64,000 bases of DNA from Candidatus Bathyarchaeota archaeon (GTDB lineage Archaea; Thermoproteota; Bathyarchaeia; Bathyarchaeales; Bathycorpusculaceae): NCBI GenBank assembly GCA_963775895.1, contig CAVZKL010000018.1, positions 32,001 to 96,000 on the forward strand, in the 5' to 3' direction. Shown here in pieces: positions 294 to 62,938 of the stretch (position 1 is the first letter of the stretch; each line of letters begins with the position of its first letter). The translations under genes and the position numbers were made by a program. Below the pieces are notes generated by a model that searched no databases, was not told the origin of the DNA, and worked only from the letters and a program-made list of their open reading frames with translations.

Positions 294-621
294 TTTCTTC
301 TCATGCACCGATGTGTTAGCATACTCTAAATAAGTTTAGCGGGTTACACGCAATCGCAGAAAGCGCGCGTCGAAGACCAATCAACCACGACCGCCCCCGC
401 GAGCGCTTTTGCTCGACTCGTGCGCGATGGCAGAAGTCTCCATCGCAAACGAAAGCTCTGACGTGGAAACTAGCAACTTTGAAAATTATCGATAGCTTGT
501 AGTCACATGGAGTAACTAGTGGAGACGTCTCCCACACAATTCCCCCTCCTTTTTTTATTTGAAGGCGTTTGCTGGCTTGTGCAGGGTTCTAGTTAACAAT
601 ATTAGACGGGGAAGCTCTATT

Positions 622-3075
622 ATGGTTGGGAGGATGGAGGCTGGAAAGGCTGTGAGGCTGTTTCTAGTCTTGTTCTGCGTTTGCATTCTGTTTGTCTCTT
701 GTTACTTGCCTGCAAGTTCATATTCACGGTCGTCTATCGACACGAGCAGGTTCGTTGAAGGAACGACGGCTTGGGGTCCCTACGACGCTGATCCAGGAAT
801 TGCCTACGATGTTCAGAGCGGAGAACTGATATTCAACACGTACCAGAACCTGATCGCCTTCAACGGCGAGCAGTACTACGGTTTTGTTCCGCAGCTGGCG
901 ACGAACGTTCCGACACTGCAGAACGTGACGATGACGGTGACTAACACGTCAGCAGTCGTCATCGGTGGAGACGCGATGGTACCACTTGGACGGACGGAGT
1001 GACAAACTACACCGTGGTCTGGTGGACGGACGAGTTCGGGGATGGTTTCCATCAGGGTGACGTAATCACTCTGAGTCCAGGCTACATGACACTTGGACGG
1101 TTGACAGCCTCACTGGCACGTCGGCTGATAACGTTGGGCCTGTGGCATGGGCAGTACGTGTTCAACATCGACACAACCCACAACATCTACTTCTACGACA
1201 ACAATGGCAACCACGTTGGCAAGTTCAACGTCACTGACGCAGCCTACTCGCTGCAGAGGTACCTCGTCATGGACGTGCCAGGTCAGCCGATATGGATGTT
1301 CGACAAACCGCTGTTCGACCTCGCAGACCACACTGGTTTCACGAATGATACTGCGATGGTTCTGGCGAACATGATAAACGCCGCAGTCGTTTCTGACACT
1401 GTCGCCAACACGCTGACGATAAACGTTGGCTGTCACTTCCCTGACAACGCCTTCAAGCAGATATTGTCGAGCACTTGGAGTGCCATCGGAAGCATGAACA
1501 ACACGATCGCGATCGGAGGCTGGAACGGGAATCTGTTTGACACTTCTAAGTATGGCGGTCCATTTCCTGACTGGTGGATCGACTGGGCTGGACAAGGTAA
1601 CGGAACAAACTACTCGACAGATCCGTCAGACCAGCTGCTTCCATCAGTGTACGTCGGCACAGGACCATACCACATCGTGACAATCGACGAAGCAAACAAC
1701 AAGGTGGTCATGCAGAGGAACCCGGACTTCTGGATGGGCTGGCCTGCAGCCAGGATGTAACGGTGTCTCTGGACACGATTGAAATAGACTACATCGCAGA
1801 CTGGTGGACGAGGAAGGCTGACTTTTTGGCCGGTTCAATCGATACTTGGCAGGTTCCAACGGTCTACCAGTTCGAGCTGCTTGACAACCGAACAAAGCAA
1901 CCGATCATCCCGCAGATAGAGACAGTCAAGAATCTTCCGCAACTGCATCGGAGATGTACATGTTCGACTTTACCATCAACAGCTCAAGCCCGTACATCGG
2001 AACTGGAAGCCTTCCAAACGGCATACCCCGGACTTCTTCAACAACACGCACATCAGAAAAGCGTTCGCCTACTCTTTCAACTGGTCAACTTTCGATGCGG
2101 AAGCGTACTTCGGAGAGTCATGCTACCGAAACAACTTTCTGATCCAAGGCTTGTACCCAGACTACTACAGCTACGGTACGCCCGCCTAGGCTACTACGAG
2201 AGCCTGACAACGCCGAAGCCGAGTTGAAAGCAGCGATCTTCGACGGACGAGCGTCTGGGACAGCGGTTTCACCCTCACATTGCCCTACCCTACTGGACAA
2301 AATCCTCAGATTCATATCCCTGCACTATGATCGTTGATTTCTTCTCGACGCTCAGCACTTTCGACGGCACGAACAGGCAAACCCGCTTTCAATAGTCGTT
2401 CTCGAAGAAATCGACTGGACCACTACAATAAATGGTATGACGCAGAGGCTGCTTCCGATGTTCGACAATAAATGGCTCGCTATTCGAACCCTTGGGAGGA
2501 GGCACAAACTTCGCGGACGCTGATGAATTCGCACGTCCATACATGCACAGCAGTGGTTTTTTCGCGTACTACGAGAACTACACTGCTGCCAACGGTTGGG
2601 GCAGTCTAAAAGATCAGTTGGTCGACCAAGCAGCCTTGACGCCTGACGGTCCCGCAAGACAGAGCTCTGTACGATCAGCTGCAGCTGATCTTCTACAACG
2701 ATTGCCCAAGCTTTCCAGTCAACAACCCTCTGGCAGGTTCTGGTGTCAGTACTGGGTCAAAGGATGGTACTACAACGCGATGTATCCAGCGACTTCTACT
2801 TACACGATGTGGAAGGGGACAACCCCTGGTACGACGTCAGCGGCAGCACGCCAGGAATCTCGGACGGCGTTGTCAACATGAAAGACATAGCCTACCTCAT
2901 CGCTCACTTCAACGCCAAAGCACCAGTTCCAGGCCAGCCGCCAGATCCGAAGTGGGTAGGCGTGTACGGTGCAAACGGTTGCGTTGACCCGTTCGGAGAC
3001 CGCGTTTGCAACATGAAAGACATTGCAGGCGCAGTAATACACTTCAACCATCACGCGAACACAGGCACACCGTGA
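622..3075 (+). CDS. Family-5 (oligopeptide) ABC substrate-binding protein with C-terminal dockerin-like repeats; heavily frameshifted
   Basis: Fragments carry signal peptide, DPGIAYD..SGELIFNTYQNL, GTGPY, YADADEFARPYMHS, WVKGWYYN and duplicated DG.VNMKDI motif across at least 6 ORFs. Confidence 0.8.
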
Positions 3076-3167
3076 CTCTGAGTTATTCACAGAGATTTTT
3101 GCTACAGCTGAAAACTTCGCCGACATCTGAAACAGTAAAGCGCGTCCTATAGTCACAACTTGTGAGG

Positions 3168-3443
3168 TTACTCTTGCAGGGCAGCAAAGAATTTGCGCAT
3201 GCGTTTGAACGTTTCCAAGTATTCAAGCCCCCATTTCGTGGCTCGATACTTCTTAGAATCCTCCAACTGTACTTCGGTGATGAAACCATGGGCCATTAGA
3301 AAGTTGAGTTCTTTCTTGGTTCGGTCAACGGGCATGTTGGCTCCGTAAGAGACTCGAGTTAGTGAACAAAGTCCTTTTCTGGCGATTATATCAACTATGT
3401 CTGCGTAGATGTCGTACTTTGTTCTTCGCCGTTCCTCAGACAC
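3168..3443 (-). CDS. Winged-helix transcription regulator (archaeal HTH_45-like)
   Basis: RRRTKYDIYADIV...TRVSYGANM...YRATKWGLEYL pattern; GTG start at 3443. Confidence 0.8.
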   Translation of the reverse strand: MSEERRRTKYDIYADIVDIIARKGLCSLTRVSYGANMPVDRTKKELNFLMAHGFITEVQLEDSKKYRATKWGLEYLETFKRMRKFFAALQE

Positions 3444-3509
3444 GTCAGAGTCTCCGAACCCATTACTATTAAATTCTTGCAGGCTTAATCTTAATTTCGG
3501 TGAACAAAA

Positions 3510-4376: not shown

Positions 4377-4508
4377 GCCGGGGTGGCGGAGTGGTTATCG
4401 CGCTGGCCTCGAGATCATGTCAAGAGGAAAGTGGGCCTAGGCATACAATGACAAGTCAGCCAGTGGGCCTTTGGGCTCGCAGGGGTTCGAGTCCCTTCCC
4501 CGGCGCCA
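4377..4508 (+). tRNA. tRNA-Ser(CGA) with 44-nt intron at 37/38 (4414-4457), encoded CCA
   Basis: GCCGGGG/CCCCGGC acceptor stem, CTGGC/GCCAG anticodon stem, long variable arm, GGTTCGAGTCC T-arm. Confidence 0.93.
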
Positions 4509-7149: not shown

Positions 7150-7212
7150 ATCGCGCGCGCAAGACTTTACGACGAATGGCTACAGAACCAAACGAAATAG
7201 CATGGCGCGCAG

Positions 7213-9767: not shown

Positions 9768-9969
9768 GAGTTTTCACCGTTTACGTTCTTCGTTGATACT
9801 ATTTAAGGCTAATTCACAGACGTTCCAGTGTTCAACTAACTTCATGCAAAGAGCAGTGTTCATTGCTTCCCCTCTAGTTTTTCTTCTTCGGCTATTTCAC
9901 GCATGTCGCGCGTGTCGTATCGCTACACTTTTAACCCGTGATGGCTAACTCTTGGTTCTGGTGGTCTTG

Positions 9970-25704: not shown

Positions 25705-25985
25705 GTGTCGGGACGAACTGAATGGCCAACGATCTGGATTCTGATATCGCCATCGAGATGTCGATGATACTAGAGGTCGGATATCCTATCCGGCAGTAAT
25801 ATGTCGTTATTGTCGCTTTGATTCGCTCTATTCGCGCGTACTTAGGTCCTTTTGCGACGTTGGAATGTCGATGTGCGCACCAGATGTCTTTGTCGAGAGA
25901 TTTGTTGATGATTGGTTCCGGTATCGGTAAGTCTATATACTTTGATGATGTAGAAGGCTTAAAACTTGTCGAGGGAGTTTCGTAA

Positions 25986-38152: not shown

Positions 38153-38388
38153 ATCAGACTGCACACGCGCATGTTCGCGCAACGTGAGTTTGACACCACG
38201 TAGAATTGTGAATGGGCTAGGATGTGCCCGTGTTTTGACGACGATTGAAATGTGCTAATATGCCTACTGTCTCTCATGTCGTACACGAGCGCGCGCGACG
38301 ATAATGGCTCAGCGTGATCCTCTAATTTTCTTGCCAGAAAACTTTTTCTTTGTGAAACGAGTGGACATCGAACAGGAATGGTGATAGT

Positions 38389-38754: not shown

Positions 38755-38905
38755 CCGTAAAAAGCCTTGCCTTTCTATTTAGTGTCTTACGGAGACTTTT
38801 CCCCCAAGCCTCTCCACCCTGCTCTTCAGTTTCTCAATCGCCTGTCTGAGCTCCGAGTTCACTAGCGCGCGCGAAGTCATGCTTAACCTTATTGTCGCGC
38901 TAGCT

Positions 38906-39148
38906 TCACGCTCGCGCTCCAACCCAATTGCCGAGCTTTGCAAGTTCGACCGATAAGTAACCGGGACCGGGGGCGATTTCAAGCACGTTACTGCTGGGTG
39001 CGGTATTGTCCTTTACAAGCTCAGCCCAGGATTTGTATTGTGCAATGCTGTTCTTCTGAATTCTATTATACTGCCAAGCGACAATGCCTTCCATCGCTAT
39101 GCCTTTGTAGGCTTTTCTTTTGTTAGACGAAGGAGAATTTGTTGTCAT
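38906..39148 (-). pseudogene. 5' fragment of class I SAM methyltransferase
   Basis: MEGIVAWQY...VLEIAPGPGYLSVELAKLG, truncated right after motif I. Confidence 0.75.
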
Positions 39149-39354
39149 GCTATCTCTCACTCTTTATCTGTTCCCCTGTATTTCTTCAGGGGTTGCTTAA
39201 GATTGATGAGGTTTTGCTCAAGATCTTGGTCTTCATATTTATTCCAAGAAAGGAATGATAACTGTTGCCTAACGCGCGCTTGCAATTAATCAGGCTCAAA
39301 AAGTAGTCCTTCGAACAATGGCGATCGATTTTAACCTTAATGCATTGCCAGTAC

Positions 39355-39398
39355 CACTAATAAATCTAATGTCACACTTTCCCTTCTAATGTCACACT
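39355..39398 (+). repeat. 44-bp imperfect direct repeat, copy 1
   Basis: 37/44 identical to 41357-41400 by manual alignment. Confidence 0.8.
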
Positions 39399-39402
39399 CT
39401 TG

Positions 39403-39717
39403 CTATGTGCCCAGAACAGTTTTTGAATTATTTGCCCATCTTTTCAGATATAGTACACCCATTATCAATGAGGCAGCAAAAACTACCGATCCTAGCATTG
39501 AAAGGCGAAAGATCGATTGGAAATATTCAGGGTTGACTTGTTGCTCGCCACGGGAGTATGCTAACCACACAGCCAATCCGATGAGACTCAAGATCAGACC
39601 AGTTGTCAACAGAACAAGGAGAAGCAAATGCCGCCTCTTGATTAGATTATTGGTTCGCTGTAACTTTTCCGCAACAACAAAAGTCAGTCTGCCAAAGAGT
39701 TTTATTAGTTGACCCAA
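39403..39717 (-). CDS. Small membrane protein
   Basis: Two hydrophobic helices; start uncertain. Confidence 0.5.
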   Translation of the reverse strand: MGQLIKLFGRLTFVVAEKLQRTNNLIKRRHLLLLVLLTTGLILSLIGLAVWLAYSRGEQQVNPEYFQSIFRLSMLGSVVFAASLIMGVLYLKRWANNSKTVLGT

Positions 39718-39882
39718 TATGCGTTTTCAGAAAAGCATTACGCATCATCTTTTCCACTCATCGTCACACTCTCAGCGAACTCGGAAAACCAAAAAGCGTA
39801 CGCACTAAAATGGGGAGAGATAGTTGCTGATACAAAAAATATGGAATAGCCTCAGCGGAACCAAGGGCTCAGACCAGAGCGC

Positions 39883-40404
39883 CTATAGAATTATCGGTCT
39901 GAACTGTCTTCTTTTGCCAACTCGGTATCCCAGGTAACCACCTATCACATAGGAGAGTAAAATATATGGTATGAAAACAAAAGGGTCTTCTGCCAACGCT
40001 GTGAGGAGGAGGACACGGTTTAAGAGAAAGGTTATTGCAGCGTATATGACGAAACCGAAGACGCCGGCTCCGAGGGCTGTCCAATACGTTTGCCAGAATT
40101 TGAGACTGGCGTGCGCCCACGCAATTCGGTAGACCCGAAAAACTGCATAAGTCAAGATTGGGGCTAGTAAAGTGTATAGTAACGCACCCTCCAATGTAGC
40201 ATAGCCTGTCAGTTTATTGAAGTAGTCTAGCCAAGTGAACAGAAGCAAAGCAACATAGAGAGATATTGCCAACCACTTCATGCGGTTGCTTGGAACCATT
40301 TCCTTCTGAATACGCACGGACGCTCTCACAATGTAACGTCCAGTCCGCTTTATTGGCCTCGGACAATAATACCTGAGTTTTTCACGCACTCCCACGTTCT
40401 TCAC
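39883..40404 (-). CDS. Membrane protein (about 4 TM)
   Basis: Hydrophobic segments; overlaps stop of upstream HTH gene. Confidence 0.65.
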   Translation of the reverse strand: MKNVGVREKLRYYCPRPIKRTGRYIVRASVRIQKEMVPSNRMKWLAISLYVALLLFTWLDYFNKLTGYATLEGALLYTLLAPILTYAVFRVYRIAWAHASLKFWQTYWTALGAGVFGFVIYAAITFLLNRVLLLTALAEDPFVFIPYILLSYVIGGYLGYRVGKRRQFRPIIL

Positions 40405-40898
40405 TCTCCAGTGATTTTTTGAAAGAGGAGTTCAGCAATCTTGCTGGGTGAGATTGATTCAAAATTGTCGGGAGACTGAATGTTTCGTTCTTCCATCTCG
40501 GCAAGCAGTGTTTTTCTGCAGTTCTCAAGATGATCGCAGTTCACGCAGTCGCCTTCGTGTCTGTACCAGACTTGAACTCCGTTTTTAGCAGAAAAAGTGA
40601 TTATGGCCGGTGTCTTGAACTCGGAGCTGAACCCTGAAAGAATTCCAATTGCGGGATTTACCGCTTCCACTTTTATCTTGTTCAGTTTGGCCGTTTCCAT
40701 GAGTGCTTGCGAGACCTTGCTATCGGCCACATCCGCAGCTTTGTGCACCGTTTGACGGCTTACCTCCAGTCTTCTGGCTATTCCCGCCTCGAACAAACCC
40801 TTCCTTTTCAGGTCCCAGATCTTCAATTGCTTGGAAGTCAGGTAACCATCGCTTAGAGCCACGATTCTCCCTGTAAGTATTTGAATGCTGACAACCAC
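40401..40898 (-). CDS. HTH regulator with C-terminal Cys cluster
   Basis: LTSKQLKIW..EAGIARRLEVSRQTVHK; HEGDCVNCDHLENC. Confidence 0.8.
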   Translation of the reverse strand: MVVSIQILTGRIVALSDGYLTSKQLKIWDLKRKGLFEAGIARRLEVSRQTVHKAADVADSKVSQALMETAKLNKIKVEAVNPAIGILSGFSSEFKTPAIITFSAKNGVQVWYRHEGDCVNCDHLENCRKTLLAEMEERNIQSPDNFESISPSKIAELLFQKITGE

Positions 40899-40986
40899 TT
40901 AAATCTTGTGCTCGCCCAGCGCGCGCACAAAGTACTTAAAGTTGAGAAACGACCCTAGAATTGATGGGTGTAGACTTGTGAAATAT

Positions 40987-41208
40987 GTGTCTGACCCAGT
41001 TTCACGTAGAAAAATCAGTATCGGACTTTGGATACTGACAGTTACAATATTGGTAACTGTTTTGGTTATTACTGTTTGGAGCCACATCTTTAGACCAGAT
41101 CTATTTGGATTCATGTTGGTTGCAGACCCTGTTTTGTCCGTCATTGCCTTTTGCCTAATTTTGCTCAGCCTGTCGTTAAATCGCTGGAAGCCGTTACTTA
41201 GAAAGTGA
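40987..41208 (+). CDS. Small two-TM protein
   Basis: Hydrophobic ORF divergent from the HTH gene. Confidence 0.5.
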   Translation: MSDPVSRRKISIGLWILTVTILVTVLVITVWSHIFRPDLFGFMLVADPVLSVIAFCLILLSLSLNRWKPLLRK

Positions 41209-41356
41209 AGCAATTTCAATAGTAACATCACATTTCTTTTTTTCTTGACGGATAAGCGCGTGCTAATCCGGCGCGACCCAGGTCTAAAATCCCGATTGTG
41301 CCTTGAAACATGAAGTACGTTCAGTTCATAATTCGATAATGTTCCCAAAAATTTAG

Positions 41357-41400
41357 CACTAGTAAATCTAATGTTCCACTTTCCTTTCTAATGGAACATT
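41357..41400 (+). repeat. 44-bp imperfect direct repeat, copy 2
   Basis: Matches 39355-39398; contains AATGTTCCA/TGGAACATT inverted repeat. Confidence 0.8.
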
Positions 41401-41436
41401 CCTGTAAACCATACCCTGAAAAAGGAAGCACGCGCG

Positions 41437-41874
41437 CTAGTATTCCAGAACTCCGATTTGCATCGTCATCTTCCACTCCTTCCCGACCTTCGCGTAGACT
41501 TTGCAGACGCGCCCCTTCCATCGCATCCCCCTGCCTCTGCTGTCGCGCCAGAGCGTGTTGATGTCTACGACCGCGAAAGCCCCGTCTCTTTCCTCCGACA
41601 CGACTATTTTCTTTATCCTCCTTTCGTTATGGATGAGGATGTGGGTGTCAAATAGATTCTGCCATCCCCTCTTCCAGCGGTCATGGTTGAACCTACCCTG
41701 CGTAAGTACCCAGTCCATCGGGTCGTGTGACTTAGTGGTCTTCGGCCAAGGCCAAACCATATCGGGGTGGAAGACTGTCAGCAGCAGCTCAGCGTCCCTA
41801 GTGTCCCATGCGCGCGTCTCTCTGTTGACGATTTCCTCTATCTCCTTCTTCGCCGTCTTGAGTTTGAGCGCCAT
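41437..41874 (-). CDS. NTF2/SnoaL-like protein
   Basis: AWDTRDAELLLTVFHPD..AFAVVD..KVGKEWKM. Confidence 0.8.
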   Translation of the reverse strand: MALKLKTAKKEIEEIVNRETRAWDTRDAELLLTVFHPDMVWPWPKTTKSHDPMDWVLTQGRFNHDRWKRGWQNLFDTHILIHNERRIKKIVVSEERDGAFAVVDINTLWRDSRGRGMRWKGRVCKVYAKVGKEWKMTMQIGVLEY

Positions 41875-41918
41875 GGTTCCGTTTCCGCTCGACATAAGAT
41901 GCGCGCGCAATTTTCTGG

Positions 41919-42215
41919 CTATTTTCGCTCTAGCTTGAAGATCACTGGTCTTAACCCGTCTGGGCAACACGCTACTGCAACTCCAGGTTCGTCATACCAC
42001 TCAGAACAGTTGCCACCGAACCTGAGCGTCATAATCATCGGGAAGATTGTGTCCCAAGCGTAAGGGCAAAACCCGTTTGGCGTGCTATCATCAACTTGGA
42101 ATACCTGTCCTTCTTTGAAGATGGGACATGGACCACTATACTTTGCCTTGATTGGAGGATCTTTGAATACCTCTTTTGTATCAAACAGTTTGAGCACTGT
42201 AATCTTTATGCAATT
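41919..42215 (-). CDS. TIGR04076-like protein (start uncertain)
   Basis: CPIFKEGQVF, FCPYAW, CCPDGLRPVIFKLER. Confidence 0.85.
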   Translation of the reverse strand, partial: NCIKITVLKLFDTKEVFKDPPIKAKYSGPCPIFKEGQVFQVDDSTPNGFCPYAWDTIFPMIMTLRFGGNCSEWYDEPGVAVACCPDGLRPVIFKLERK

Positions 42216-42379
42216 TGCTTCCTTCTTCAAACAAACACCCCATATGCTCACAGTTGTTCTAGCAATACTATTAAAGACTACATCAGGGCGCGCGATTGTT
42301 GAATTGCGGCCTAACCTAATTAAACTTTAAAAGCAACAGCTTATTCTGTAGTTATCGACCAAAAACTGCGAGGATCAGA

Positions 42380-46061: not shown

Positions 46062-46159
46062 ACCATTGAGAATGTACATGTTTCACAGTCGCGCGCGTTC
46101 TGGCGAGGGGGTCTGGTTGACGGTTAGGCGGATTGCGTTCAGAGACGTTCTAAGGTGAA

Positions 46160-47220
46160 TTAGGCATCTTCGGTCCAGTAGATCTGTCTTTGTCGCTTTC
46201 TTTTCTCAGAGTTCCTTTCTTCACTCTTCGTGCAAGGAGGCCCAGAATTTTCTTTTCGTGACCTTTCGTAGGAATCCTTTTCGTTTCTAAGGCCCTTGCG
46301 ACATCTTCTAGAGTTCTTTCGTTCGGGTTCTTGAAGAATCCTTCTTCGATGAGACTCTGGAAGGCATGATGGGCAAGGCCACCCCACGTCTGGGGACCTT
46401 GGTTTCTTTTCGGTTTTGGTCGTGTTTTCTTCGCTGCTTCGAACTCTCTCTTCAGGTCGTCAAAGTCGGCGCCGACGATTTCTATGTTCTTGATGTTGGC
46501 TTGTCCGAGATTTCTTCTCGTGAATTCCTGTATGACTGGCATTTTCTGTGGGTCCATGCCTGCGAGTGTTGAGCCGACCGCGTCGACCGCGACGGCGTCT
46601 CTGCCTACGAGAACGATGTTCATTCGCGTTACAGGGCCGCTCCATCCGTGCCAGAAGTTTGTTCCGTCCATTACTGCGAGATCGATTCCTCCTATTGCCT
46701 CGTAGAGGTCTGCAAGTGCCGTGGGCAGTTTCTTGTGGAATCTCGCTTTTTTCTTGTCTGGAACGAGTCCAAACAGGTTTTTGAGGATGCTTCCTCTCTC
46801 GAAAGTGCGCAGGACGTGCGTGCTAACGACTACGTTGGGTTTGAATAGGATGTGTGAGAGGCTTATGTTTTCATCGGCGATTCGGAACTGTCGCGTTTCA
46901 ACATCTTCTGAAAGGTTGAAAGGAACTATTTGTCGGGTGAAGAGTTGTTTCCAGATTTGAAGTCTTTCTGAACCCGTTCCCTTGTAATTGTCAGATTCTG
47001 CTAGAAAGATTTTGGAGGCTCTGTCAAAACTGCGGGTGATAGCATTTACCACGTCGATGGATGAATGATGGTCCGTTTCATGATTGAACACTCCGACTTT
47101 GACGACGACCGGTTTTTTTTCATCGTTGAGGTCGTCGATTCCTCCGATTAGTTCAAGCCCACGCGCAAACGGGATGCGTTGATCTTCGTCGAACCGTATC
47201 ACTGCAACTTTCGAGCCCAC
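46160..47220 (-). CDS. DUF362 protein with C-terminal wHTH-like domain (frameshift near 3' end)
   Basis: LKNLFGL, DLAVMDG, GRDAVAVDAV; tail LIEEGFFKNPNERTLEDV. Confidence 0.75.
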
Positions 47221-47383
47221 GTCATCTCCCCTCTCTGATAGAGGATTCGGATGGTTGGCACGGTGATAAGGCTTTTCTACAGGATTGAATACGCTTGCGA
47301 AAAGTCATCTGTGAGGATTGATGTTCTGCTGTCTAGTACCGTGGAGGTTGACGGTTTTTCAGCCAGGTGTAGATGCGATAGGT

Positions 47384-47764
47384 CTAAGACTGTGGTATTT
47401 CAGTCGCTCCGATTTTGCTCTTGAAATCTTCGATAAGTTTCTTCATTTTTTGCTTTCTTTCTTCTTCCAGCTGTCTGTATATGGAAACGTACTTGTCCTC
47501 TCTAGGCGGCGGGACCTCTTCGGCATAGGGCCATTTAACGTTGATCTCGGTGCCGTTTTCTCTTTCCTTGAAAAAAAATTCGATCTCGAAATTCTTTCCC
47601 ACCCAGCTGGGGCTGTACTGCACTAGCAAATAACGGGGGGACACCTCCTTCCGTACAGTTATGTTCTTCATGCCCACTTCATCTAAGGCTTCTTGAACCA
47701 AAAGAGAACAGTCTTGGATGGGCCTGTTGACCAGGTATTTACCTTGTAAGTATTTGAGGAGCAT
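47384..47764 (-). CDS. Hypothetical protein
   Basis: 126-aa ORF with plausible start and stop. Confidence 0.6.
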   Translation of the reverse strand: MLLKYLQGKYLVNRPIQDCSLLVQEALDEVGMKNITVRKEVSPRYLLVQYSPSWVGKNFEIEFFFKERENGTEINVKWPYAEEVPPPREDKYVSIYRQLEEERKQKMKKLIEDFKSKIGATEIPQS

Positions 47765-47923
47765 TTGATGATTTCCCGAGTTATGTAGTAGTCTTTTCTC
47801 TCATAAGCCTTGTTCGGGCATACACGTCGTCACGAGCCCGCGCGCTAGAATGAGTGGAGCCACTTCTGGATGTATAGAAGGATTTATACGCAGAAAAACT
47901 ATTCCAGCTAATTGGTGCTTGCT

Positions 47924-48166: not shown

Positions 48167-48996
48167 CTCCTTGTACGCAGACTGGAAAATACAGTGACTG
48201 TAGGGCGCCTGCTTATTATGACTTGGTTCCTCTGCAAAGGATTGCCCCTGTGCCAAATCTCAAACCAACTGCTTTGATTTGTCTCACCATTTTGTCGTGA
48301 ACAAGACGGACTTCGTTTCTCTCTGCCCCTCCATCTACAACAAGCTTCCAGAGCGAACGCTCGCCAAACAGGTTTTTCGTCGTCCATTCAAACATCGAAA
48401 CATCGGTCACTGTTGGCGGCTCCCTCACCATGACCTCTACGTTTCCCAATCCAGCCCTTTGAAATAGACGTCTTCATATTATCTTCATTGAAAGGCACGT
48501 CGACGTATAGTTAGTAAAAGGCCCTTTTGATTTGAATAGGAATGCCTAGAAGTCCTCCAGGCTCTGCGACCACGACCCTTCCACCATGTTTTGCCACGCG
48601 CACCATTTCTCTCATCGCTTTTAATCTACGATTGTCGATCGATGCAATCAAGGACTTACAGCATACGACATCGGCAAAATCATCTTCAACTGGAATACTG
48701 TAGACATCTCCAAATTTGAATTCAAGCGTTTGATACTGACTCTTTCTTCGCAGTCCTCCGTCTTGCTTGCCGGATAGCAGACTTTGAAATATCTAGGCCT
48801 ATGACTTTTCCACTTTCCCCAACTTTTTCTGCTAGTTTAAACGCGAGGAACCCTGCCCCTGTTCCCACATCAACTATCGTTTCCCCTGTCTTTGGTCCAA
48901 TAAACTGCACTATACTATCAAGCAGTTGTTTGCTATGGTCTGGGAACTTCGGTACATTTTCTCAGGGATTTTGTATGCAGATTCGGTCCAAGACAT
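48163..48996 (-). pseudogene. UbiE-like SAM methyltransferase with multiple frameshifts/stops
   Basis: IVDVGTGAG..GKVIGLDIS, DDFADVVCC, REMVRVAKHGGRV in different frames. Confidence 0.65.
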
Positions 48997-49259
48997 TTAA
49001 CTCCCTCTTCGAAAACTTGTTGAGCAAGCTTTTAAAAGTTCATCTGAAAGAAGTGACTTTCAATGCCTTCGCAGGCGCATCTTGAAGTGATTCATGAACC
49101 AGAAACGCTAAACCTCATTTCGGATGAAACGAGAAGAAACGGTGCGCGCTTTCGATTCACTGCGGTTTCGAACCTAAACCGTGCGTGCGGTGGAAAGATT
49201 TAAGGTCATCAGGCTCGTTTTGCTGTAATCTATCAGTGAGAAGTTTGGACTCGAGTCTG

Positions 49260-52445: not shown

Positions 52446-53045
52446 ATGGTGAATGGCAAACGAGGCAGACGAAGGAAACATAGCTGGGTTGAATTTCCTG
52501 ACCTTGAACAGGATTCTTCACGTGAAGCCGTGTACCTGAGGTGGGTCAGTGTCAACAATCCCGCGTTGGCTCGATGTGCACATGATGGATGCCCACAATG
52601 TCGCGACAAGCGCTTCAGGCTCAGACATGACGAGAAATTCAACAACATACGTTTCTACTGTTCAAACTGTGGTTATGAGACTTCATTCCACATAATACGC
52701 CCCAAACAGAGCTTCAGTTCGATAGAAATCTATGACGAACGAGGTATTCTTGTTGGCTTGAAAAACGTTGATGATCATCATGAAAAAACTAGCCGGGAGA
52801 ACGCTGATTCGCGGGTGATGCTTTCTGAGCAGAAGCTGGAGTTGGGCGGTGAATGGTTCGACGGTGTTTCAGGCACCAATTCGCAGTCTCGCTATTTAAC
52901 TCGCGAGGAAGTCCTGAAACGGATTGAGGATCGTAAGATGAAGAGATTGATGGAGGCCAACCTTGATGAGATCGAAAGCATAGAACGGGATGAACGAGGC
53001 TCGAGTTTGAAACCTGAGGCTCAGGATGAGGATGTTGCGGACTGA
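52446..53045 (+). CDS. Hypothetical zinc-ribbon protein
   Basis: CPQC and CSNC pairs; acidic tail. Confidence 0.6.
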   Translation: MVNGKRGRRRKHSWVEFPDLEQDSSREAVYLRWVSVNNPALARCAHDGCPQCRDKRFRLRHDEKFNNIRFYCSNCGYETSFHIIRPKQSFSSIEIYDERGILVGLKNVDDHHEKTSRENADSRVMLSEQKLELGGEWFDGVSGTNSQSRYLTREEVLKRIEDRKMKRLMEANLDEIESIERDERGSSLKPEAQDEDVAD

Positions 53046-53156
53046 TTTTCTGTAATATAGTATGAGGAAGAGCAGAAGCGCAATATCGCTGTTTCTTGAT
53101 CTCAATTAGAGCTTTTGGCTTTTTTGACTAGCGCGGTCGTGTTTCCGCGCGGGCAT

Positions 53157-53705
53157 TCAAGAACCGATTTTTCTATCTTCTTTTGATCGTTCTGGACGGT
53201 AGTATCTGAATAGATTGTATCTCTGCAGGCGTGGCCAACCCGTCTTCGCGTAAATCAGCTTTTCTGGATTTTTCCTCAGCCAATTCATCATGTGGAAGAA
53301 GCTCTTCGCCTTTTTCGTGTCTCTCTCCTCTATCGGTTCATAACCCAAGTTTCTGATTTCGTCAAGGTAGGCTATTTCCGTGAGCCTCTGCGGTTCCCCC
53401 GTGACTGTGATTCTGTCAATCTGATCGTCGCCATACCTCTCCTTTAGTCCGTCCACAGCTTCGTCGAAGATGTAGCCTCTGCAGATTTGGATTTGTTCGT
53501 CTTTCTTGAGTTCAAGCTTATCGAGCAGGTGAAACACGATTCTCGAAGCTTCCTTCAGGTACTCTTTTGATCGGAATCGCGGATACCTGAAGTATTTGAC
53601 GTCCAAGACGTCGTACGTGAATTCCTGAGTTTCGCAGCGAAAGGCGCCTATGACCACGCCGAAAAGTAGGTCACCTATGCCGGCATCATCGACAATTATC
53701 GTCAG
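53157..53705 (-). CDS. Hypothetical protein with RNase HII-like N-terminal motif
   Basis: Frame extends upstream of track ORF: (M)TIIVDDAGIGDLLFGVVIGAFR; CTG start after GGGGATGG. Confidence 0.65.
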   Translation of the reverse strand: MTIIVDDAGIGDLLFGVVIGAFRCETQEFTYDVLDVKYFRYPRFRSKEYLKEASRIVFHLLDKLELKKDEQIQICRGYIFDEAVDGLKERYGDDQIDRITVTGEPQRLTEIAYLDEIRNLGYEPIEERDTKKAKSFFHMMNWLRKNPEKLIYAKTGWPRLQRYNLFRYYRPERSKEDRKIGS

Positions 53706-54085
53706 TTAACGCCATCCCCCTTTTGTGAGAGATAGATGAACCACACGCGCATTTATAAAAACGCCTCACACGTGTCATGAATATTGTTTGTTTCTCGGAT
53801 TTCTTGACGCTCACGCACGTCATGCTATTCTGCTGAAAGACCGACGATTGTCCAGACCACGACTATATCGTGGGATAGTTGGGATTGGAATTGAGGATAA
53901 AGGGAGATGTTTTCGACAAAACGCTCTCTCGTGACTAGATGCTGCAGGACTCTTCGAGTCTTCTTCCCAAATGCTTGAAGCTGGAAAAAGGACCAAGAGT
54001 GGGCGCGCGAAAGTTTTAAGAGCAGTTTTCTTCATATACGACTTCAAGGTTTTGCAGAAAAAACAGTTGGAGAGAGGAAAAAGAC

Positions 54086-56047
54086 ATGAATGTGAAGAAA
54101 TGTACAGCTTTGCTTTGCTTTTCAGTGTTGTTGGCAAGTTTGATGGCGGGTGGTTTGGGCAGAGTCCAAGCTCAAACATATCCGAGGGAACAGACGATGA
54201 TTCTGGGCGGTGACACATCGTACGCCGGTATGGGCTTCAATCCTTACGGTCTCCCTGGCGGCACGTGCAACAGAGGTAGAGCGCTAACATACATGTCGCT
54301 CTTCTGGTACAATTGGACCAGCGGCAGCTTACAGCCGTGGCTGGCCCAAAGCTATGAGTGGTCCACGGATGGCTTAACGTTTATAATTCATCTGCGTCCG
54401 GAAGCTAGATGGCGGGACGGTACGCCCGTGACTGCTGATGATGTCGTGTTCGATTTTATGACAGAAGATCAAAACGGGTCCTATCCCATAGAAAGCTCGA
54501 TAATAGATTCAATAACGGCCGCTGACACCTACACCGTGCACTTTAATCTCGTGTCTGGTACCGAGTTTAGCAATCACGTGTTTTCGGACCTTCAGGACGT
54601 GCCAATCTTTGAAAAGGCAAGGTGGCAGCAGCTCCTGGCGAGCGCGAGCTCGAATTCAACGGATATTCTGTCGTATACGAACGAGAACTTTGACCAGATA
54701 GACGGTAATGGTCCGTATCTGCCAGTCTATTCGGATCCCAACAAGATAGTGTATCAGAGAGTCGATGATTGGTGGGGCAATAGCACGTTTGGACAGCCAG
54801 CACCAAAGTACGTGATGATGATAAATCACGCTACGAATGATTTGGAGCAACGAGACTTCGACGCTGGCTCCGTGGATTGGGACGACAGTTTCTTCAGCGG
54901 AATCTCCAGTTACGTCACGAGCCACAGCAATGTAGTGGTCTGGAACAGAAATGATCCCAACGGAAAGATCTTCAACACGGCTGGTGCCATATACATGGTT
55001 CCGAACATTAACAGCACAACCCATCCCGAACTCGGTCAGCCTTGGCTGAGACAGGCTGTGGCGTATGCAATCAACGTAAGCCGGATAATCTCGACCGCTC
55101 AACAAGGACTCGTCGTGGAAGCTTCTCCATCGTTCATCACTCCTACAGGACCAATGGCCGACCAGTACATCGATCACGATTTAATAAACAAAACATACGG
55201 AGACCCGAACTACATTCCATACGATACGCAGAAGGCGATACAGATTCTGCAGCAGCACTGCAGCGGAAGTGTTAGCGCAGGCTGGAGTTGGAATGGGAAG
55301 CCTATAGGTCCATGGAATGTGTACAGCGTTTCAGGCTGGAGTGACGTCAACCTGATGAGCACTCTGATGGCAGAAGATCTGCAGAAGATCGGAATAAAAT
55401 TGAACGTGGACATCATCGATGAATCCATTTATGACGACCGCAGGCACGCAATGGACTTCGATTGGTTGGATTTCACCTCTTCGGTGGACAACTCACCGTC
55501 GCCTACATATCCTGTCAGCAACTTCGACAATCTGTTCCATGGGGACCCAACGTTGGACGTGGATCCATGCAATTACACTACATCCGCGAACTACGAGGAA
55601 GTCTACAACTCGACACTGAAGATGTGGAACTTGCCAATCGGGAGCGCCGCGTCAATAGCAGCGGCCAAGCAAATACAGGCATTAGTCATGCCAGAGCTTC
55701 CGTACATCCCACTCTACGTTCAAATCCCGTGGAGCAGATACATCACATCCTACTGGACTGGATGGCCAACCGTTGACAATCGAGGTCCAGGACAGGGCGC
55801 TAGCTGGTGGGAACCAATCATTCCACAGGTGATACTGATGCTCAAACAAGCGCCGACAACGACGACCATTGGCGGAGTGTCACCATGGGTCTGGGTCGGC
55901 GTTGGAATTGTCATCGTCGTCATCATCGCAGCTGTGGCGTTGGTCTGGACACGGAGAAGCAAGCCAGAAAGCTCGAGTCCATCTGCTGGAAGCGAAGCGC
56001 AAGATAAGGGGAAAGCAACCCCCACCTCTTTTATTTCTTTTTCCTAG
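54086..56047 (+). CDS. Family-5 ABC substrate-binding protein with C-terminal TM anchor
   Basis: PWLAQSY, WRDGTPVTADDV, GNGPY, LRQAVAYAIN, GWSD, ELPYIPL, YWTGWP. Confidence 0.92.
   Translation: MNVKKCTALLCFSVLLASLMAGGLGRVQAQTYPREQTMILGGDTSYAGMGFNPYGLPGGTCNRGRALTYMSLFWYNWTSGSLQPWLAQSYEWSTDGLTFIIHLRPEARWRDGTPVTADDVVFDFMTEDQNGSYPIESSIIDSITAADTYTVHFNLVSGTEFSNHVFSDLQDVPIFEKARWQQLLASASSNSTDILSYTNENFDQIDGNGPYLPVYSDPNKIVYQRVDDWWGNSTFGQPAPKYVMMINHATNDLEQRDFDAGSVDWDDSFFSGISSYVTSHSNVVVWNRNDPNGKIFNTAGAIYMVPNINSTTHPELGQPWLRQAVAYAINVSRIISTAQQGLVVEASPSFITPTGPMADQYIDHDLINKTYGDPNYIPYDTQKAIQILQQHCSGSVSAGWSWNGKPIGPWNVYSVSGWSDVNLMSTLMAEDLQKIGIKLNVDIIDESIYDDRRHAMDFDWLDFTSSVDNSPSPTYPVSNFDNLFHGDPTLDVDPCNYTTSANYEEVYNSTLKMWNLPIGSAASIAAAKQIQALVMPELPYIPLYVQIPWSRYITSYWTGWPTVDNRGPGQGASWWEPIIPQVILMLKQAPTTTTIGGVSPWVWVGVGIVIVVIIAAVALVWTRRSKPESSSPSAGSEAQDKGKATPTSFISFS
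56008..56043 (+). terminator. Hairpin plus T-tract, probable terminator
   Basis: GGGG-AAAGCAA-CCCC followed by TCTTTTATTTCTTTTT. Confidence 0.45.
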
Positions 56048-56083
56048 CATGCACATCTAACGCGCGGTTCGTTCGGTTCGGTC

Positions 56084-61818: not shown

Positions 61819-61886
61819 TGCGCGCGCGAAGAATGTTTCGATTCCGATAGACGGATTTCACGAATGAGGTTGGTTCTGTCTGGTAT

Positions 61887-62360
61887 TCATCTATGGCTGC
61901 TGGTCTGCTGGACGGAGAATCTTTTTCGTGCGCGAGATAAGTAGTAGATTTGTAGTATGGTTATGAGTAGCCAGACAACGAGGATGGCGGCAGTCACGAT
62001 TCTTAGTTCCCAGCTTTGAATGAAGTAGTTTACGAGCAGGAGAGTTATCAAGAGAACGATGATGCCCAGCTGAACGAGTCTCAGCGTCATGATTCTTTTT
62101 CTCGGGTTCCACTCGCCGCCTCTTGCGGCTCGCATTTCTTCTATCTGCTTCAGTCTTTCCTCGGAGAGATAGTACTTGCCGTTCACTTCTATGAAGACGC
62201 CTGAGCGGCCCAGACGTCTCTTCATCGCCTCCTCGAATCTTGGCGGGAGATCGAGTTCTTGCGGCGTCATGGCTTTGTCTGGGCTGGTGGCTCCTTTTTG
62301 GCGGAACTTTTCGACGATTTCGTTGAACCATCTCTGGATTTGTTCTCGTCTTTCGAACAT
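61887..62360 (-). CDS. Hypothetical protein, soluble N-domain + 2 TM
   Basis: GATSPDKAMTPQEL..GKYYLSE, then two hydrophobic helices. Confidence 0.7.
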   Translation of the reverse strand: MFERREQIQRWFNEIVEKFRQKGATSPDKAMTPQELDLPPRFEEAMKRRLGRSGVFIEVNGKYYLSEERLKQIEEMRAARGGEWNPRKRIMTLRLVQLGIIVLLITLLLVNYFIQSWELRIVTAAILVVWLLITILQIYYLSRARKRFSVQQTSSHR

Positions 62361-62390
62361 GGTATTTCACTTTGAACGTTTTGTGCTCCT

Positions 62391-62621
62391 TTATTCGTCT
62401 GCGTGTTGTTCTAGTCCTTTGAGGACTCTTGAGGCGAATTCTCTCATGGCGTCTGCCTTTACCATCGTGATGCCGCGTCTGTTCTTGCCTGTTATGACGA
62501 GCAGGAGGTCTCCGGGTTTTATGTTGAAGTCTTTTCTAGCTTGTGCGGGTATGACGATTTGGCCTCGGTCGCCGACCTTTACGGTTCCGTAGATGTGCAT
62601 GTCTTCATCGTTTTTGCTCAT
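62391..62621 (-). CDS. AbrB/MazE/SpoVT DNA-binding protein
   Basis: VKVGDRGQIVIPAQARKDFNIKPGD. Confidence 0.92.
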   Translation of the reverse strand: MSKNDEDMHIYGTVKVGDRGQIVIPAQARKDFNIKPGDLLLVITGKNRRGITMVKADAMREFASRVLKGLEQHADE

Positions 62622-62938
62622 AATTATTCCACTTTTCGTGTATTTCATATTATTCATACTGTTTAAAAGGCGTTGTGCATGATTCGTACATGGCGCGCGC
62701 AAAAAAGGAATCGAAGAAACCTACGACTATCTGAACAGGCAACCAGGTAAACAACGGGCTTAGGTTGTACGAGACTGCTTCGATGCGGTCGGCGACTCAC
62801 TCATGGCCCACTTTCTTCTATCTTCACTCTCGCCCCTTGCCCTTCGAAAGAATAGAGTATTGCAGCGAAATATTCTAGCGAACTCGCTATTTTCGCTTGA
62901 GTCAGACCGTGCTGTGCCAATCAGAGTAGTCTTGAAGT

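Follow-up and report, generated by a model that had tools for sequence, protein, structure and literature searches.

The commonest word between the genes of this uncultured Bathyarchaeia archaeon and of its genus is a short palindrome, GCGCGCGC, which sits where gene modules were inserted, lost, copied or swapped and which is probably the end or the scar of a family of jumping elements. Within the window, the whole stretch of 64,000 nucleotides analysed here, it occurs 7 times against 0.59 expected, a number reached by none of 100 dinucleotide-preserving shuffles, and G/C-only hexamers overall are not enriched (547 versus 618 expected). No other 8-mer is as frequent in the intergenic DNA of the 1.77-Mb genome. 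The original prediction had read the short CG-alternating tracts of the window as marks of gene-module boundaries left by an undescribed mechanism of cassette insertion and shuffling. All 25 positions that it listed do hold a pure CG-alternating tract of at least 6 nt; the window total is 27, with two coding tracts, at 14388 and 60957, to be added to the roughly five that it had counted in genes. Its count of eight tracts of at least 8 nt (7152, 38289, 38865, 40919, 41901, 46090, 61820 and 62693) is correct as well. Two of these, 41901 and 62693, fall inside the longest ORFs picked by a crude caller but upstream of the Pfam-matched parts (residues 40 onward), so that the statement that all eight are non-coding is plausible, though not proven.

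The expected intergenic excess holds genome-wide. Over 1,771,656 bp, with genes from our own crude caller (81% coding), tracts of at least 8 nt number 216 intergenic, 38 coding and 9 straddling, which puts their intergenic density at 20-30 times the coding one, and the complete genome of a congener, G001, repeats the pattern for 8-nt tracts (231, 28 and 8, respectively). Intergenic tract lengths peak at 8 (GCGCGCGC 100 versus CGCGCGCG 22) and are cut off sharply above 10 nt. At 67% of ends the tract adjoins A (5' side) or T (3' side), and the second base outward completes TA in 35%, beyond which, more than 2 nt from the tract, no flank information was found; the commonest extended form is the palindromic 10-mer A-GCGCGCGC-T, and only this mild preference is left of the shared CTAG flank proposed earlier. 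Variants with one internal mismatch are in excess, which suggests a decay of about 13%, near the divergence among MITE copies, and the tract copies look like decaying rather than maintained sequence. The word is restricted to the genus: AGCGCGCGCT has 7-114 copies in all 10 genomes of the same Bathyarchaeia genus but 0-1 copies in 28 of the 30 other genomes searched (5 and 9 in the remaining two), against 0-4 copies per genome for a reversed control word.

Tracts gather in the accessory genome. With orthology taken as reciprocal best hits to a single congener and genes from the crude caller, their number per kb of spacer falls from 1.38 between two accessory genes to 0.88 between core and accessory genes, 0.58 where the orthologues are not adjacent and 0.15 in the syntenic core (7 of 461 syntenic spacers). 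The difference between accessory and syntenic core spacers, about ninefold overall, is seen in all six spacer-length bins. Tract positions are not conserved between species, and only one of the seven tract-bearing syntenic spacers has a tract in G001 too. Of the 20 non-coding tracts in the window, 18 are found at boundaries that are accessory or non-syntenic and, as originally noted for ribosomal spacers, the syntenic block of ribosomal-protein genes around 13-20 kb has no intergenic tract.

That tracts mark module boundaries is further borne out by the ends of duplicated segments and by strain junctions. Of 121 ends of dispersed repeats in this genome 18% lie within 5 nt of a tract, and of 312 in G001 25%, as compared to 2.7% and 3.3% of random intergenic positions, i.e. 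5-8 times more often, and when ends at tracts bearing inverted repeats are removed the proportion is still 48 of 282 (17%). In both genomes unrelated duplicated segments begin or end exactly at a tract; the 33 tracts abutting repeat ends in this genome have 30 unrelated inner sequences. For example, C10:42206-42466 and C7:32365-32625 share a promoter and a 66-aa ORF at 98.9% identity over 261 bp, homology beginning at GCGCGCGCG in both and ending at CGCGCGCG in C10. A dispersed module of about 100 nt (TTTAACC..TAAATCTAATGT..), present at 39330-39403 (+) and again at 41354-41437 (+), where it ends in the tract CGCGCGC 41431-41437, loses its homology at the tract in 16 aligned copies from 8 species, and immediately before 39331 the contigs of run X4 have another sequence than the window, one that ends in TTAGCGCGCGC. 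Among strain-variant contigs, 434 nt of C2 are replaced in C16 by A-GCGCGCG-T, truncating a gene, and contigs of other samples skip or replace segments at tracts. Contigs of X1 and X5, from two studies, carry 33 nt containing GCGCGCG instead of the 971 bp at 48173-49143, with the right junction exactly at the tract GCGCGC 49144-49149; the part at 48219-49024 is 91% identical to G008, whereas core genes matched in the same search reach 72-77%. One X1 contig joins tracts 38866 and 42288 with 8 shared letters, although one side measures only 22 letters, which makes it weak evidence.

The individual loci show what lies between the tracts. A solo GCGCGCG at 363-369 occupies a spacer whose two flanking genes have no match in G001, and a spacer of 63 nt is filled by two tracts, CGCGCGCGC (7152-7160) and GCGCGC (7205-7210); the G001 orthologues of its flanking genes (idx1420 and idx1413) are separated by six further genes and a 297-bp inverted-repeat element. 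A 4.15-kb segment at 38153-42316 is missing from the locus in nine congeners, namely those in which the two flanks had adjacent matches. Eight tracts (38289, 38865, 39273, 40919, 41431, 41810, 41901 and 42288) lie in it among small ordinary genes (cupin, SnoaL-like and others), and one of these genes, at 39883-40404, has a homologue that an IS5-like transposon of G001 carries as a passenger. The cupin module of the segment (38289-38873; gene 38389-38754) is bracketed by GCGCGCGCG at 38289-38297 and 38865-38873, and the G001 orthologue of the gene belongs to a cassette of 872 bp whose inverted repeats read GCGCGC-TAGCGGGTTCC. The tract CGCGCGCG at 46090-46097 lies at the left junction of the inserted DUF362 pair (about 46098-47795), and CGCGCGC at 47839-47845 lies some 45 nt to the right of the other junction, inside sequence that is extra with respect to congeners. 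CGCGCG at 53146-53151 separates two genes that are convergent here and stand in opposite order, and hence divergent, in G001, G002 and G010. The solute-binding-protein gene at 54086-56047, unmatched in G001, lies between GCGCGCG 54003-54009 and CGCGCG 56061-56066, and an AbrB/MazE-type gene pair (61820-62700) between GCGCGCGCG 61820-61828 and GCGCGCGC 62693-62700. The G001 orthologues of this pair are at a non-syntenic locus without GCGCGC in the 241 nt before or 2.6 kb after it. These three bracketing pairs, DUF362 included, had been located correctly, whereas the bracket proposed at 50174 is a CG run of 5 nt only. The 6-nt tract in the near-syntenic spacer at 9907-9912, that at 25833-25838 and the coding tracts 14388, 21521, 22702, 59740, 60957 and 63345 are compatible with background and are left out of the system claimed here.

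The closest known counterparts of this system are insertion sequences of the IS5 family and their derivatives, for which the terms MITEs, mobile insertion cassettes (MICs), transporter ISs and solo inverted repeats are in use (PMC3129680). In congeners, GCGCGC opens the inverted repeats of the following elements: an IS5-like insertion sequence about 1.1 kb long, whose transposase (DUF772 + DDE_Tnp_1) measures about 330 aa, its short non-coding MITEs (about 24 copies), and cassettes that carry passenger genes and no transposase; one further copy combines transposase and passengers. In G001 a MITE of about 205 bp is present in 22 nearly complete copies, and 20 tract pairs have matching inner flanks, as opposed to 5 in an outer-flank control; counted among these pairs are an IS of 1080 bp and a transposon of 2481 bp that have DUF772 + DDE_Tnp_1 ORFs, as well as cassettes with cupin, MFS plus response-regulator, and MEDS genes. 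IS copies of G004, which has an intact 331-aa transposase, and of G007 likewise start with (C)GCGCGC. Outward flanks agree between element ends (T 62%, A 47%) and solo tracts (T 67-70%, A 35-39%). A related IS of the out-group G029 has GTGC-YAGGGTGTTGC at both ends in inverted orientation, which argues that at least the inner GCGC is element-borne and not a target duplication, and three MITE sites of G001 have a syntenic counterpart in this genome, none of which carries a tract, which indicates that the element brings it. Different from the known family, however, the transposase scores below the NCBIfam curated cut-offs (121 versus 140 bits for IS5, 166 versus 270 for IS1182), and no clear target duplication was found for the congener elements: only 3 of 27 paired elements have TA on both sides, and one G004 copy has no duplication. 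Above all, the self-complementary (GC)3-4 tip vastly outnumbers the elements, by about 30 to 1. It mostly lacks an adjoining inverted repeat, in about 90% of cases in G001 and in essentially all cases here, where no IS-type inverted repeat was found. IS-like flanks accompany 3 of 422 intergenic tracts in this genome, the control rate, and 80 of 763 in G001, with almost no intermediate scores, so that the solo tracts are not decayed solo inverted repeats. The mechanism is therefore not wholly undescribed, as GCGCGC tips belong to these elements, yet 90-100% of the tracts stand without a repeat.

Our best explanation, which we hold tentatively, is that a genus-specific population of mobile cassettes has the tract in common as its tip and its scar. 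GCGCGCGC, mostly as A-GCGCGCGC-T, would be the terminal or junction word common to the mobile modules of the genus, and most tracts would be solo remnants left when a tipped element departs or when two tips are deleted into one. Two joined GCGC(GC) tips could give the G...C palindromes of 6, 8 or 10 nt, which would keep the flank bias of element ends. Since the tip reads the same on both strands, two tracts are always an inverted-repeat pair and, at the same time, a direct, GC-rich microhomology of 6-10 bp. The transposase, working in trans, or else joining through microhomology may thus remove, copy, invert or replace the intervening DNA at these points. Such footprints predict an enrichment of GTGCGCAC in G029, where it has 4 copies versus 2 for the control, a weak test given the one IS copy known there. 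The explanation has its difficulties. The 30 unrelated inner sequences would force the transposase to use the 8-10-bp tip alone, which is unusual for DDE transposases. Moreover, neither this assembly, which is 88.8% complete, nor that of G005, at 93%, yielded a DDE_Tnp_1 transposase, and the 2-3 copies in G001 are split or broken. Finally, four congeners have a degenerate tract, ACGCGCAC, GCGCGC or GCACGCAC, at the very position of the DUF362 insertion, which fits insertion beside a pre-existing site.

But might the tract itself be the site at which modules are joined? It could be the primary crossover or target site of a genus-specific enzyme that joins arbitrary modules, be it a recombinase with a short site or a nuclease that makes palindromic cuts which are then re-ligated; on this view the IS5-like element would simply add to the modules, or else be an IS targeting the site with a 4-bp GCGC duplication, much as IS5 targets a palindromic tetranucleotide. 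We consider this the less likely reading, although the tracts without IS-like flank, the many unrelated segments with only the end tract in common, the arrest of homology in the 100-nt module, the two motif-rich genomes without detected transposase, the DUF362 site and the weak tract-to-tract joint all speak for it. So do islands of G001 with tracts between nearly every gene (e.g. 22 in the 14.8-kb island 1414376-1429169), and with a palindromic flank a target duplication and an inverted-repeat tip are indistinguishable within the genus. However, the G029 element has its GTGC at the homologous tip position, the copies look decaying, and the prediction that an empty site should carry one tract had a mixed outcome: the DUF362 locus has a degenerate one, but neither the empty site of the 4.15-kb insertion in G002 and G008 nor the three MITE sites has one. 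As to the enzyme, no candidate emerged: Y1/RAYT and IS630-type DDE_3 transposases were found in none of the five genomes searched, and a C5 methyltransferase in only 2 of 10 congeners and neither in this genome nor in G001. Tyrosine recombinases, one of the families proposed earlier for a correlation with the motif, do not follow it, numbering 9-12 in six congeners (10 here) and being equally numerous in motif-free genera, and a site of 10-12 bp is shorter than the known sites of tyrosine or serine recombinases.

A host function at gene boundaries, as binding site of a chromatin or regulatory protein, Z-DNA-prone insulator or transcription-termination signal, is improbable. Consistent with it are the palindromic 10-mer, the 70 of 325 gene-end distances that place a tract within the first 20 nt after a stop codon, the depletion up to 40 nt upstream of start codons, and the highest density in convergent spacers (1.44 per kb versus 0.82 in tandem and 0.55 in divergent ones). 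The stop-codon peak is probably trivial in part, because flanking TA followed by G makes a TAG that ends any ORF reading in, and the 8-nt tract alone should be unable to form a stable hairpin. Syntenic convergent spacers, though in equal need of terminators, have 2 tracts in 69 spacers as opposed to 40 in 65 accessory ones, and the excess of mismatched variants also argues against maintenance. With 0.15 versus 1.38 tracts per kb and without conserved positions, a general terminator or conserved regulatory site is rejected, and the Z-DNA and chromatin-protein alternatives of the original prediction are disfavoured with it. Chance, base composition or slippage of a dinucleotide repeat accounts at most for the isolated 6-nt coding tracts, since the window's coding 6-7-mers are at the genome's coding background density, and is otherwise refuted by the shuffles, by CpG and GpC observed/expected ratios of about 1, by the lack of intergenic excess of AT, AC, AG, CT or GT repeats genome-wide, by a length profile with a peak at 8, a hard limit near 10 and no geometric tail, and by the restriction to the genus despite similar GC content (48% here and in G001, the two genomes measured).

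Other repeat systems are less close. HIP1 (GCGATCGC) is the highly iterated palindrome of cyanobacteria (PMC6604393, PMC6105098). Like GCGCGCGC it is a lineage-restricted, GC-rich 8-bp palindrome and the most over-represented word of its genomes. HIP1, however, is abundant inside genes too and is tied to a CGATCG methyltransferase, whereas the present word is 20-35 times depleted in coding DNA and gathers in the accessory genome. REP/BIME elements with RAYT transposases are short, lineage-specific extragenic palindromes after genes and linked to insertion sequences, but REPs are imperfect, hairpin-forming palindromes of 20-40 bp, as compared to 8-10 bp here. Insertion sequences that target REPs have been described (PMC12288879). 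Integron cassettes resemble our tracts in their arrays of small unrelated accessory genes, each closely followed by a recombination-site-like element just after the stop codon. Their attC sites, on the other hand, are imperfect palindromes of 50-150 bp, of which the tracts have no counterpart, gene orientation here is mixed, with cassettes having their own promoters, and generic, not motif-specific, Phage_integrase matches were the only ones found in place of an integron integrase. The DNA uptake sequences of Neisseria and Pasteurellaceae are likewise 10-nt lineage-specific words often found after genes, yet they are enriched in the core genome, whereas our word is scarce in the syntenic core spacers and frequent next to accessory genes.

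Taken together, the evidence supports in part the idea of cassette insertion and shuffling. If the reading of the tract as tip and scar of mobile cassettes is true, the tracts would be boundaries of gene modules without being functional sites of the host.

Alternating C and G in uninterrupted runs of at least 6 nt, here called tracts, occur 27 times in the window by a scripted count, which confirmed all 25 positions that the original prediction had listed and added two coding ones that had been overlooked (14388 and 60957). The 8-nt palindrome GCGCGCGC is found there 7 times against 0.59 expected, a number reached in none of 100 dinucleotide-preserving shuffles, and G/C-only hexamers overall, taken as a control in the window, are not enriched (547 versus 618 expected). 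The predicted preference for intergenic DNA extends to the whole assembly, of which the window is C18:32001-96000 (1.77 Mb in 28 contigs, 88.8% complete), and for which our own dicodon-based caller returned 1918 genes (81% coding; as the longest open reading frame is always picked, 5' ends are over-called): the 1.43 Mb of coding sequence contain 38 tracts of at least 8 nt and the 0.34 Mb of intergenic sequence 216, with 9 more straddling, which makes them 20-30 times denser between genes. Their length distribution peaks at 8 nt and ends near 10 nt. GCGCGCGC is the top intergenic 8-mer, with 211 intergenic versus 34 coding copies even though coding DNA is 4.2 times larger, and the 10-nt words AGCGCGCGCT and TAGCGCGCGC are the top 10-mers of the whole genome (56 copies each). 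Since (AT), (AC), (AG), (CT) and (GT) tracts show no comparable intergenic excess, a microsatellite-like origin is ruled out, and neither chance nor slippage is the source of the tracts. The adjoining base is A on the 5' or T on the 3' side at 67% of ends (TA at 35%), and no positional information was detected more than 2 nt from the tract in 422 outward flanks of intergenic tracts of at least 8 nt, so that the element amounts to an 8-10-bp palindrome with no longer repeat around it. Assemblies appear to be interrupted at tracts: one lies within 70 nt of 7 of the 56 contig ends, against a rough expectation of about 1.5 from the genome-wide density. In two places, C4:7982-7989 and C10:112523-112530, a GCGCGCGC tract stands some 24 nt away from CATATTTGGATCCTAATA, a part of one of the genome's two most frequent 12-16-mers; these are probably CRISPR repeats, which would place the tract at the edge of two arrays.

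The word is a property of one genus. AGCGCGCGCT is present in 7-114 copies in all 10 genomes of the genus, and of 30 other genomes from the family and order 28 contain at most one copy and the remaining two 5 and 9; a reversed control word has 0-4 copies. In the one complete congener, G001 (2,346,764 bp, single contig), 8-nt tracts follow the pattern described for this genome (28 coding, 231 intergenic, 8 straddling). The named records matched by one conserved protein of the window are uncultured Bathyarchaeia. A full-text literature search of main articles retrieved no account, for Bathyarchaeia or any other archaea, of GCGCGCGC or of a palindrome iterated in a comparable way, and the terms 'Bathyarchae' and 'footprint' are absent from PMC13343696. 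As an 8-bp palindrome that is grossly over-represented genome-wide, GCGCGCGC resembles the HIP1 type. Palindromes of that type, however, are found within genes as well as between them and are tied to a cognate cytosine methyltransferase, whereas GCGCGCGC is mostly intergenic (34 coding versus 211 intergenic copies) and the C5 methyltransferase family (PF00145) was not found in this genome or in G001. It was found in just 2 of 10 congeners, which rules it out as a genus-wide partner.

But what are the tracts attached to? Dispersed repeats (at least 85% identity over at least 150 bp) end within 5 nt of a tract in 18% of 121 cases in this genome and in 25% of 312 in G001, compared with 2.7% and 3.3% of random intergenic positions. 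The sequences adjoining the 33 tracts that abut repeat ends in this genome fall into 30 unrelated groups. One such repeat, of 261 bp, contains a 66-aa ORF along with sequence resembling a promoter (C10:42206-42466 and C7:32365-32625, 98.9% identity); its homology starts with GCGCGCGCG in both copies and ends with CGCGCGCG in C10. In G001, the repeat ends uncovered an element of about 205 bp (26 HSPs, 22 of them at least 180 bp; no HSP in this genome), whose inverted repeats, GCGCGC-WWGCKTGTTCCTAAAT, are also those of a G001 insertion sequence (IS). Being short, non-coding, multicopy and bounded by IS inverted repeats, it is a MITE, and G001 is the only genome in which this was found. The terms IS, MITE, mobile insertion cassette (MIC) and transporter IS are used here as in passages of the IS literature (PMC3129680). 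The split transposase ORFs of G001 match DDE_Tnp_1 and DUF772. Two such ORFs lie in a 1080-bp element at G001:389080-390159, in which 14 of 16 inner flank positions match. A 2481-bp G001 element, bracketed like the former by the inverted repeats of the MITE, carries DUF772/DDE_Tnp_1 ORFs along with two passenger genes, and window gene 39883-40404 has its best match in one of the two. Passenger genes within these IS-type repeats but lacking a transposase, that is MICs, were likewise found in G001 only: an 872-bp cassette with a cupin gene orthologous to window gene 38389-38754, one of 2549 bp with an MFS transporter and a response regulator, and one of 1765 bp with a MEDS-domain regulator. G001 tract pairs with matching inner flanks number 20, against 5 in an outer-flank control.

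Intact transposase frames of 312-349 aa are present in the congeners G004, G007 and G009 and in the out-group G029. The elements of G004 (1125 bp) and G007 (about 1113 bp) both start with (C)GCGCGC, and, as expected of IS5-family elements (about 0.8-1.5 kb), the congener elements are enclosed by terminal inverted repeats. The intact 331-aa G004 ORF matches Pfam DDE_Tnp_1 (1.5e-29) and DUF772 (2e-13); as no NCBIfam model passed its cut-off (IS5_4, 121.4 bits versus 140; IS1182, 166.4 versus 270), we refer to the family as IS5-like and do not file it as an IS5 member. TA flanks 22 of 54 element ends, at both ends in just 3 of 27 elements. A GCGC target duplication is indistinguishable from the tip, both being palindromic, and one G004 copy is without any duplication. 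The related element of the out-group genome G029, which lacks the motif, opens with GTGC-YAGGGTGTTGC on either side, the two copies being inverted to each other, so that at least the inner GCGC is borne by the element and is not a target duplication.

We believe, at a little short of even chances, that the tract represents the tip of this IS5-like element family and that most tracts, namely the solo ones without an inverted repeat beside them, are its scars. Excision, or deletion from tip to tip, would join two tips into G...C palindromes that are 6, 8 or 10 nt long and biased in their flanks as element ends are. The tip being self-complementary, any two tracts would form an inverted-repeat pair and at the same time offer strong direct microhomology, and the DNA between them could be lost, duplicated, inverted or replaced. 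The enrichment of tracts, their phyletic restriction, their association with the flexible genome, their coincidence with repeat ends and strain variants, and the tipped elements of congeners are observed; the derivation of solo tracts from tipped elements and the mode in which modules move we infer. Outward flanks are similar in both groups, with T at 62% and A at 47% of element ends, and T at 67-70% and A at 35-39% of solo tracts. All three G001 MITE sites that are syntenic here are without a tract in this genome. Internal one-mismatch variants of the tract are in excess and correspond to about 13% decay, which is within the range of divergence among MITE copies and fits neutral relics rather than maintained sites. 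The footprint predicted for G029, its GCAC/GTGC tips joined to GTGCGCAC, is not enriched (4 copies versus 2 of the control), a weak test in a genome with a single known IS copy.

Several observations do not fit this reading, among them TA on both sides of just 3 of 27 elements, the footprint count in G029 and the DUF362 insertion described below. Searches with the G001 transposase (E<=1e-10) and PF01609 returned no match in this genome, where at 88.8% completeness repeats may be unassembled, DDE_Tnp_1 was not found in G005 (93% complete), and the transposase copies of G001 are just 2-3, split or broken. IS-like flanks accompany 80 of 763 intergenic tracts in G001 and 3 of 422 in this genome, which is the control rate, and flank scores have almost no intermediates; with the repeat ends at IS-like tracts subtracted, 48 of 282 in G001 (17%) still lie on a tract. 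Stepwise shrinkage of MITEs to solo tracts is ruled out by this lack of intermediate scores and by the lack of inverted-repeat pairs less than 128 bp apart, in a search of tract pairs at least 32 nt apart. A module of about 100 nt adds a further kind of border. It is present in all larger congeners and in at least 7 copies here (window 39330-39403 and 41354-41437; C7:31712-31783, C9:2716-2792, C10:42141-42215, C10:46103-46165, C20:26354-26427 and C22:60550-60599), and reads TTTAACC.TAATGC...TAATAAATCTAATGTTCCAC...CCTGAAAAAGGAA, with a CG tract behind it. In an alignment of 16 copies, taken from 8 species of the genus, similarity extends as far as the tract and ends there, and many copies have a degenerate GCGC at the opposite end. 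A structured RNA is ruled out (0 pairs by RNAalifold; no Rfam match better than E=0.92), and the module may be promoter-like or the end of an element. Several unrelated kinds of DNA thus have the tract alone in common at their borders.

Cause and effect might then be reversed, the tract being the primary site of an enzyme and the IS a passenger or an IS that targets the site. We regard this main rival as the less likely of the two. No candidate enzyme was found among the families searched. The Y1 (HUH) transposase of the REP/RAYT system (PF01797) has no match in five genomes (this genome, G001, G002, G005 and G008), the same search being positive in 6 of 14 control genomes; IS630-type DDE_3 is absent from the 5 genomes searched, and nothing of the TnpB type exceeded the cut-off in 5. 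Nor was the correlation with a recombinase family, by which the original prediction of a short-site cassette mechanism was to be checked, borne out for tyrosine recombinases, which carry no phyletic signal at the family level: Phage_integrase matches number 10 here, 9-12 in six congeners and 8-12 in several motif-free genera. A Phage_integrase-family match lies at C18:103831-104286, 7.8 kb past the end of the window. Somewhat less probable still, in our estimation, is that GCGCGCGC serves as the universal linker of a modular gene-exchange system of the genus, independently of the IS5-like element. Cleavage and rejoining at GCGCGCGC by some enzyme would then allow promoter modules, single genes, operons and even insertion sequences to be inserted, excised, inverted or swapped as cassettes. 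This would be a short-site analogue of integrons, but without attC sites or a known integrase; integron cassettes carry imperfect palindromes of the attC type, 50-150 bp long with core sites, and the tract flanks here have none. Derivation from IS5-like tips, by comparison, stays within a known kind, IS-derived termini and cassettes, and what is new is a very short self-complementary tip as the dominant intergenic word of a genus.

The tracts belong to the flexible part of the genome. Reciprocal best hits with a single congener, G001, gave 1187 common genes (mean amino-acid identity 71%), and the spacers of this genome were classed by both flanking genes. Tracts of at least 7 nt have a density of 1.38 per kb where neither neighbour has an orthologue (103 of 359 spacers with a tract), 0.88 where one has none, 0.58 where both orthologues exist but are not adjacent in G001, and 0.15 where adjacency is kept (7 of 461 spacers), and this ranking is the same in all six spacer-length bins. 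Just one of the seven tract-bearing syntenic spacers also has a tract in G001. Conversely, a 14.8-kb island of G001 missing from this genome holds 22 tracts, with one in nearly every spacer. Tracts lie near stop codons and are scarce in the 40 nt upstream of start codons; a general transcription terminator is ruled out by the convergent spacers, with 2 tracts in 69 syntenic against 40 in 65 accessory ones. That the tract is a site of some host function is very improbable, as its position is not conserved and core and accessory spacers differ so strongly.

The window reflects this division, and module boundaries are where the original prediction had placed the tracts. Its first 38 kb are collinear with G001 and, the pair 7152/7205 aside, have no intergenic tract of at least 7 nt; that pair is located at a synteny break where G001 has six additional genes. 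Beyond 38 kb, tracts flank insertions and genes out of synteny. Eight of them belong to a 4.15-kb segment (38153-42316), which is missing in the 9 congeners whose matches to both flanks stand side by side; its short repeats are not tRNAs, which rules out tRNA-linked integration, and the only tRNAs of the window are at 27799-27876 and 4377-4505. The latter (plus strand) matches the full Rfam tRNA model over 129 nt (45.9 bits), is absent from the ARAGORN output and is probably an intron-containing tRNA gene. The DUF362 pair, the solute-binding-protein gene and the AbrB/MazE pair are ordinary genes bracketed by tracts. The DUF362 insertion directly adjoins tract 46090, and four congeners without it have a degenerate tract at the same position, which fits insertion beside an older site. 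The modules of the window are bounded by bare tracts without IS-type inverted repeats and are accordingly no more than candidate MICs; alignment of the cupin module with the G001 cupin cassette is restricted to the coding part. Genes 52446-53045 (plus strand) and 53157-53657 (minus strand) are convergent here, and their matches in G001, G002 and G010 stand in reverse order and are divergent, which would amount to a swap of two neighbouring modules about the spacer with tract 53146. The second of these genes encodes 166 aa without a Pfam match and is 82-85% identical at the DNA level in five congeners, against 72-77% for core genes in the same search. In contigs from three of four public metagenome runs, summed depth over 52675-54008 is 5-50 times that of neighbouring bins (2190 and 1359 against about 30-40 in run X1).

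Between species, junctions in diverged spacers are not placeable to the base. Contigs C16 and C2 of the assembly are strain variants, 90-93% identical, and in C16 A-GCGCGCG-T replaces 434 nt of C2 and truncates a gene; judged from the two sequences, the tract is at a deletion junction. The two contigs have 5.4 kb in common at 93%. Other contig ends overlap at 97-98.5% identity (C22:62522-68030 with C6:1-5509, C6:30501-33922 with C12:1-3426, C25:25935-30350 with C13:1-4415), which suggests strain variants or unmerged ends, and the 91% identity of C22:1-9095 to its own reverse complement suggests either a large inverted duplication or an artefact of assembly. Among the assembled contigs of the four runs, which come from four studies of wetland and freshwater sediment, those of X1 and X5 have window 48173-49143 swapped for 33 nt with GCGCGCG, the right-hand breakpoint falling precisely on tract 49144. 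Within this stretch, 48219-49024 is 91% identical to G008:C3:160487-161294, where GCGCGC precedes the match by 23 nt; core genes in the same search reach 72-77%, which points to recent transfer, and the segment has probably been exchanged recently. In a single contig of X1, tract 38866 is connected directly to tract 42288; 3421 nt are left out and 8 letters are common to both, a weak case with just 22 letters on one side. The other apparent skips (69-394 nt), which either are intragenic or have no more than 20-30 letters on a side, were taken as cross-matches from other organisms.

Bathyarchaeia are abundant uncultured archaea of sediment and peat, and little is known of the ways in which their genomes change. 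Intergenic GCGCGCGC provides a simple sequence marker for the flexible genome of one genus, which places gene-module boundaries at base resolution and ties them to IS5-like IS, MITEs and gene-carrying cassettes, and in MAGs the tracts may help to mark out islands. Should the solo tracts be scars, several hundred of them would record much cassette traffic of the past; as active sites, they would represent a new mode of archaeal gene shuffling.
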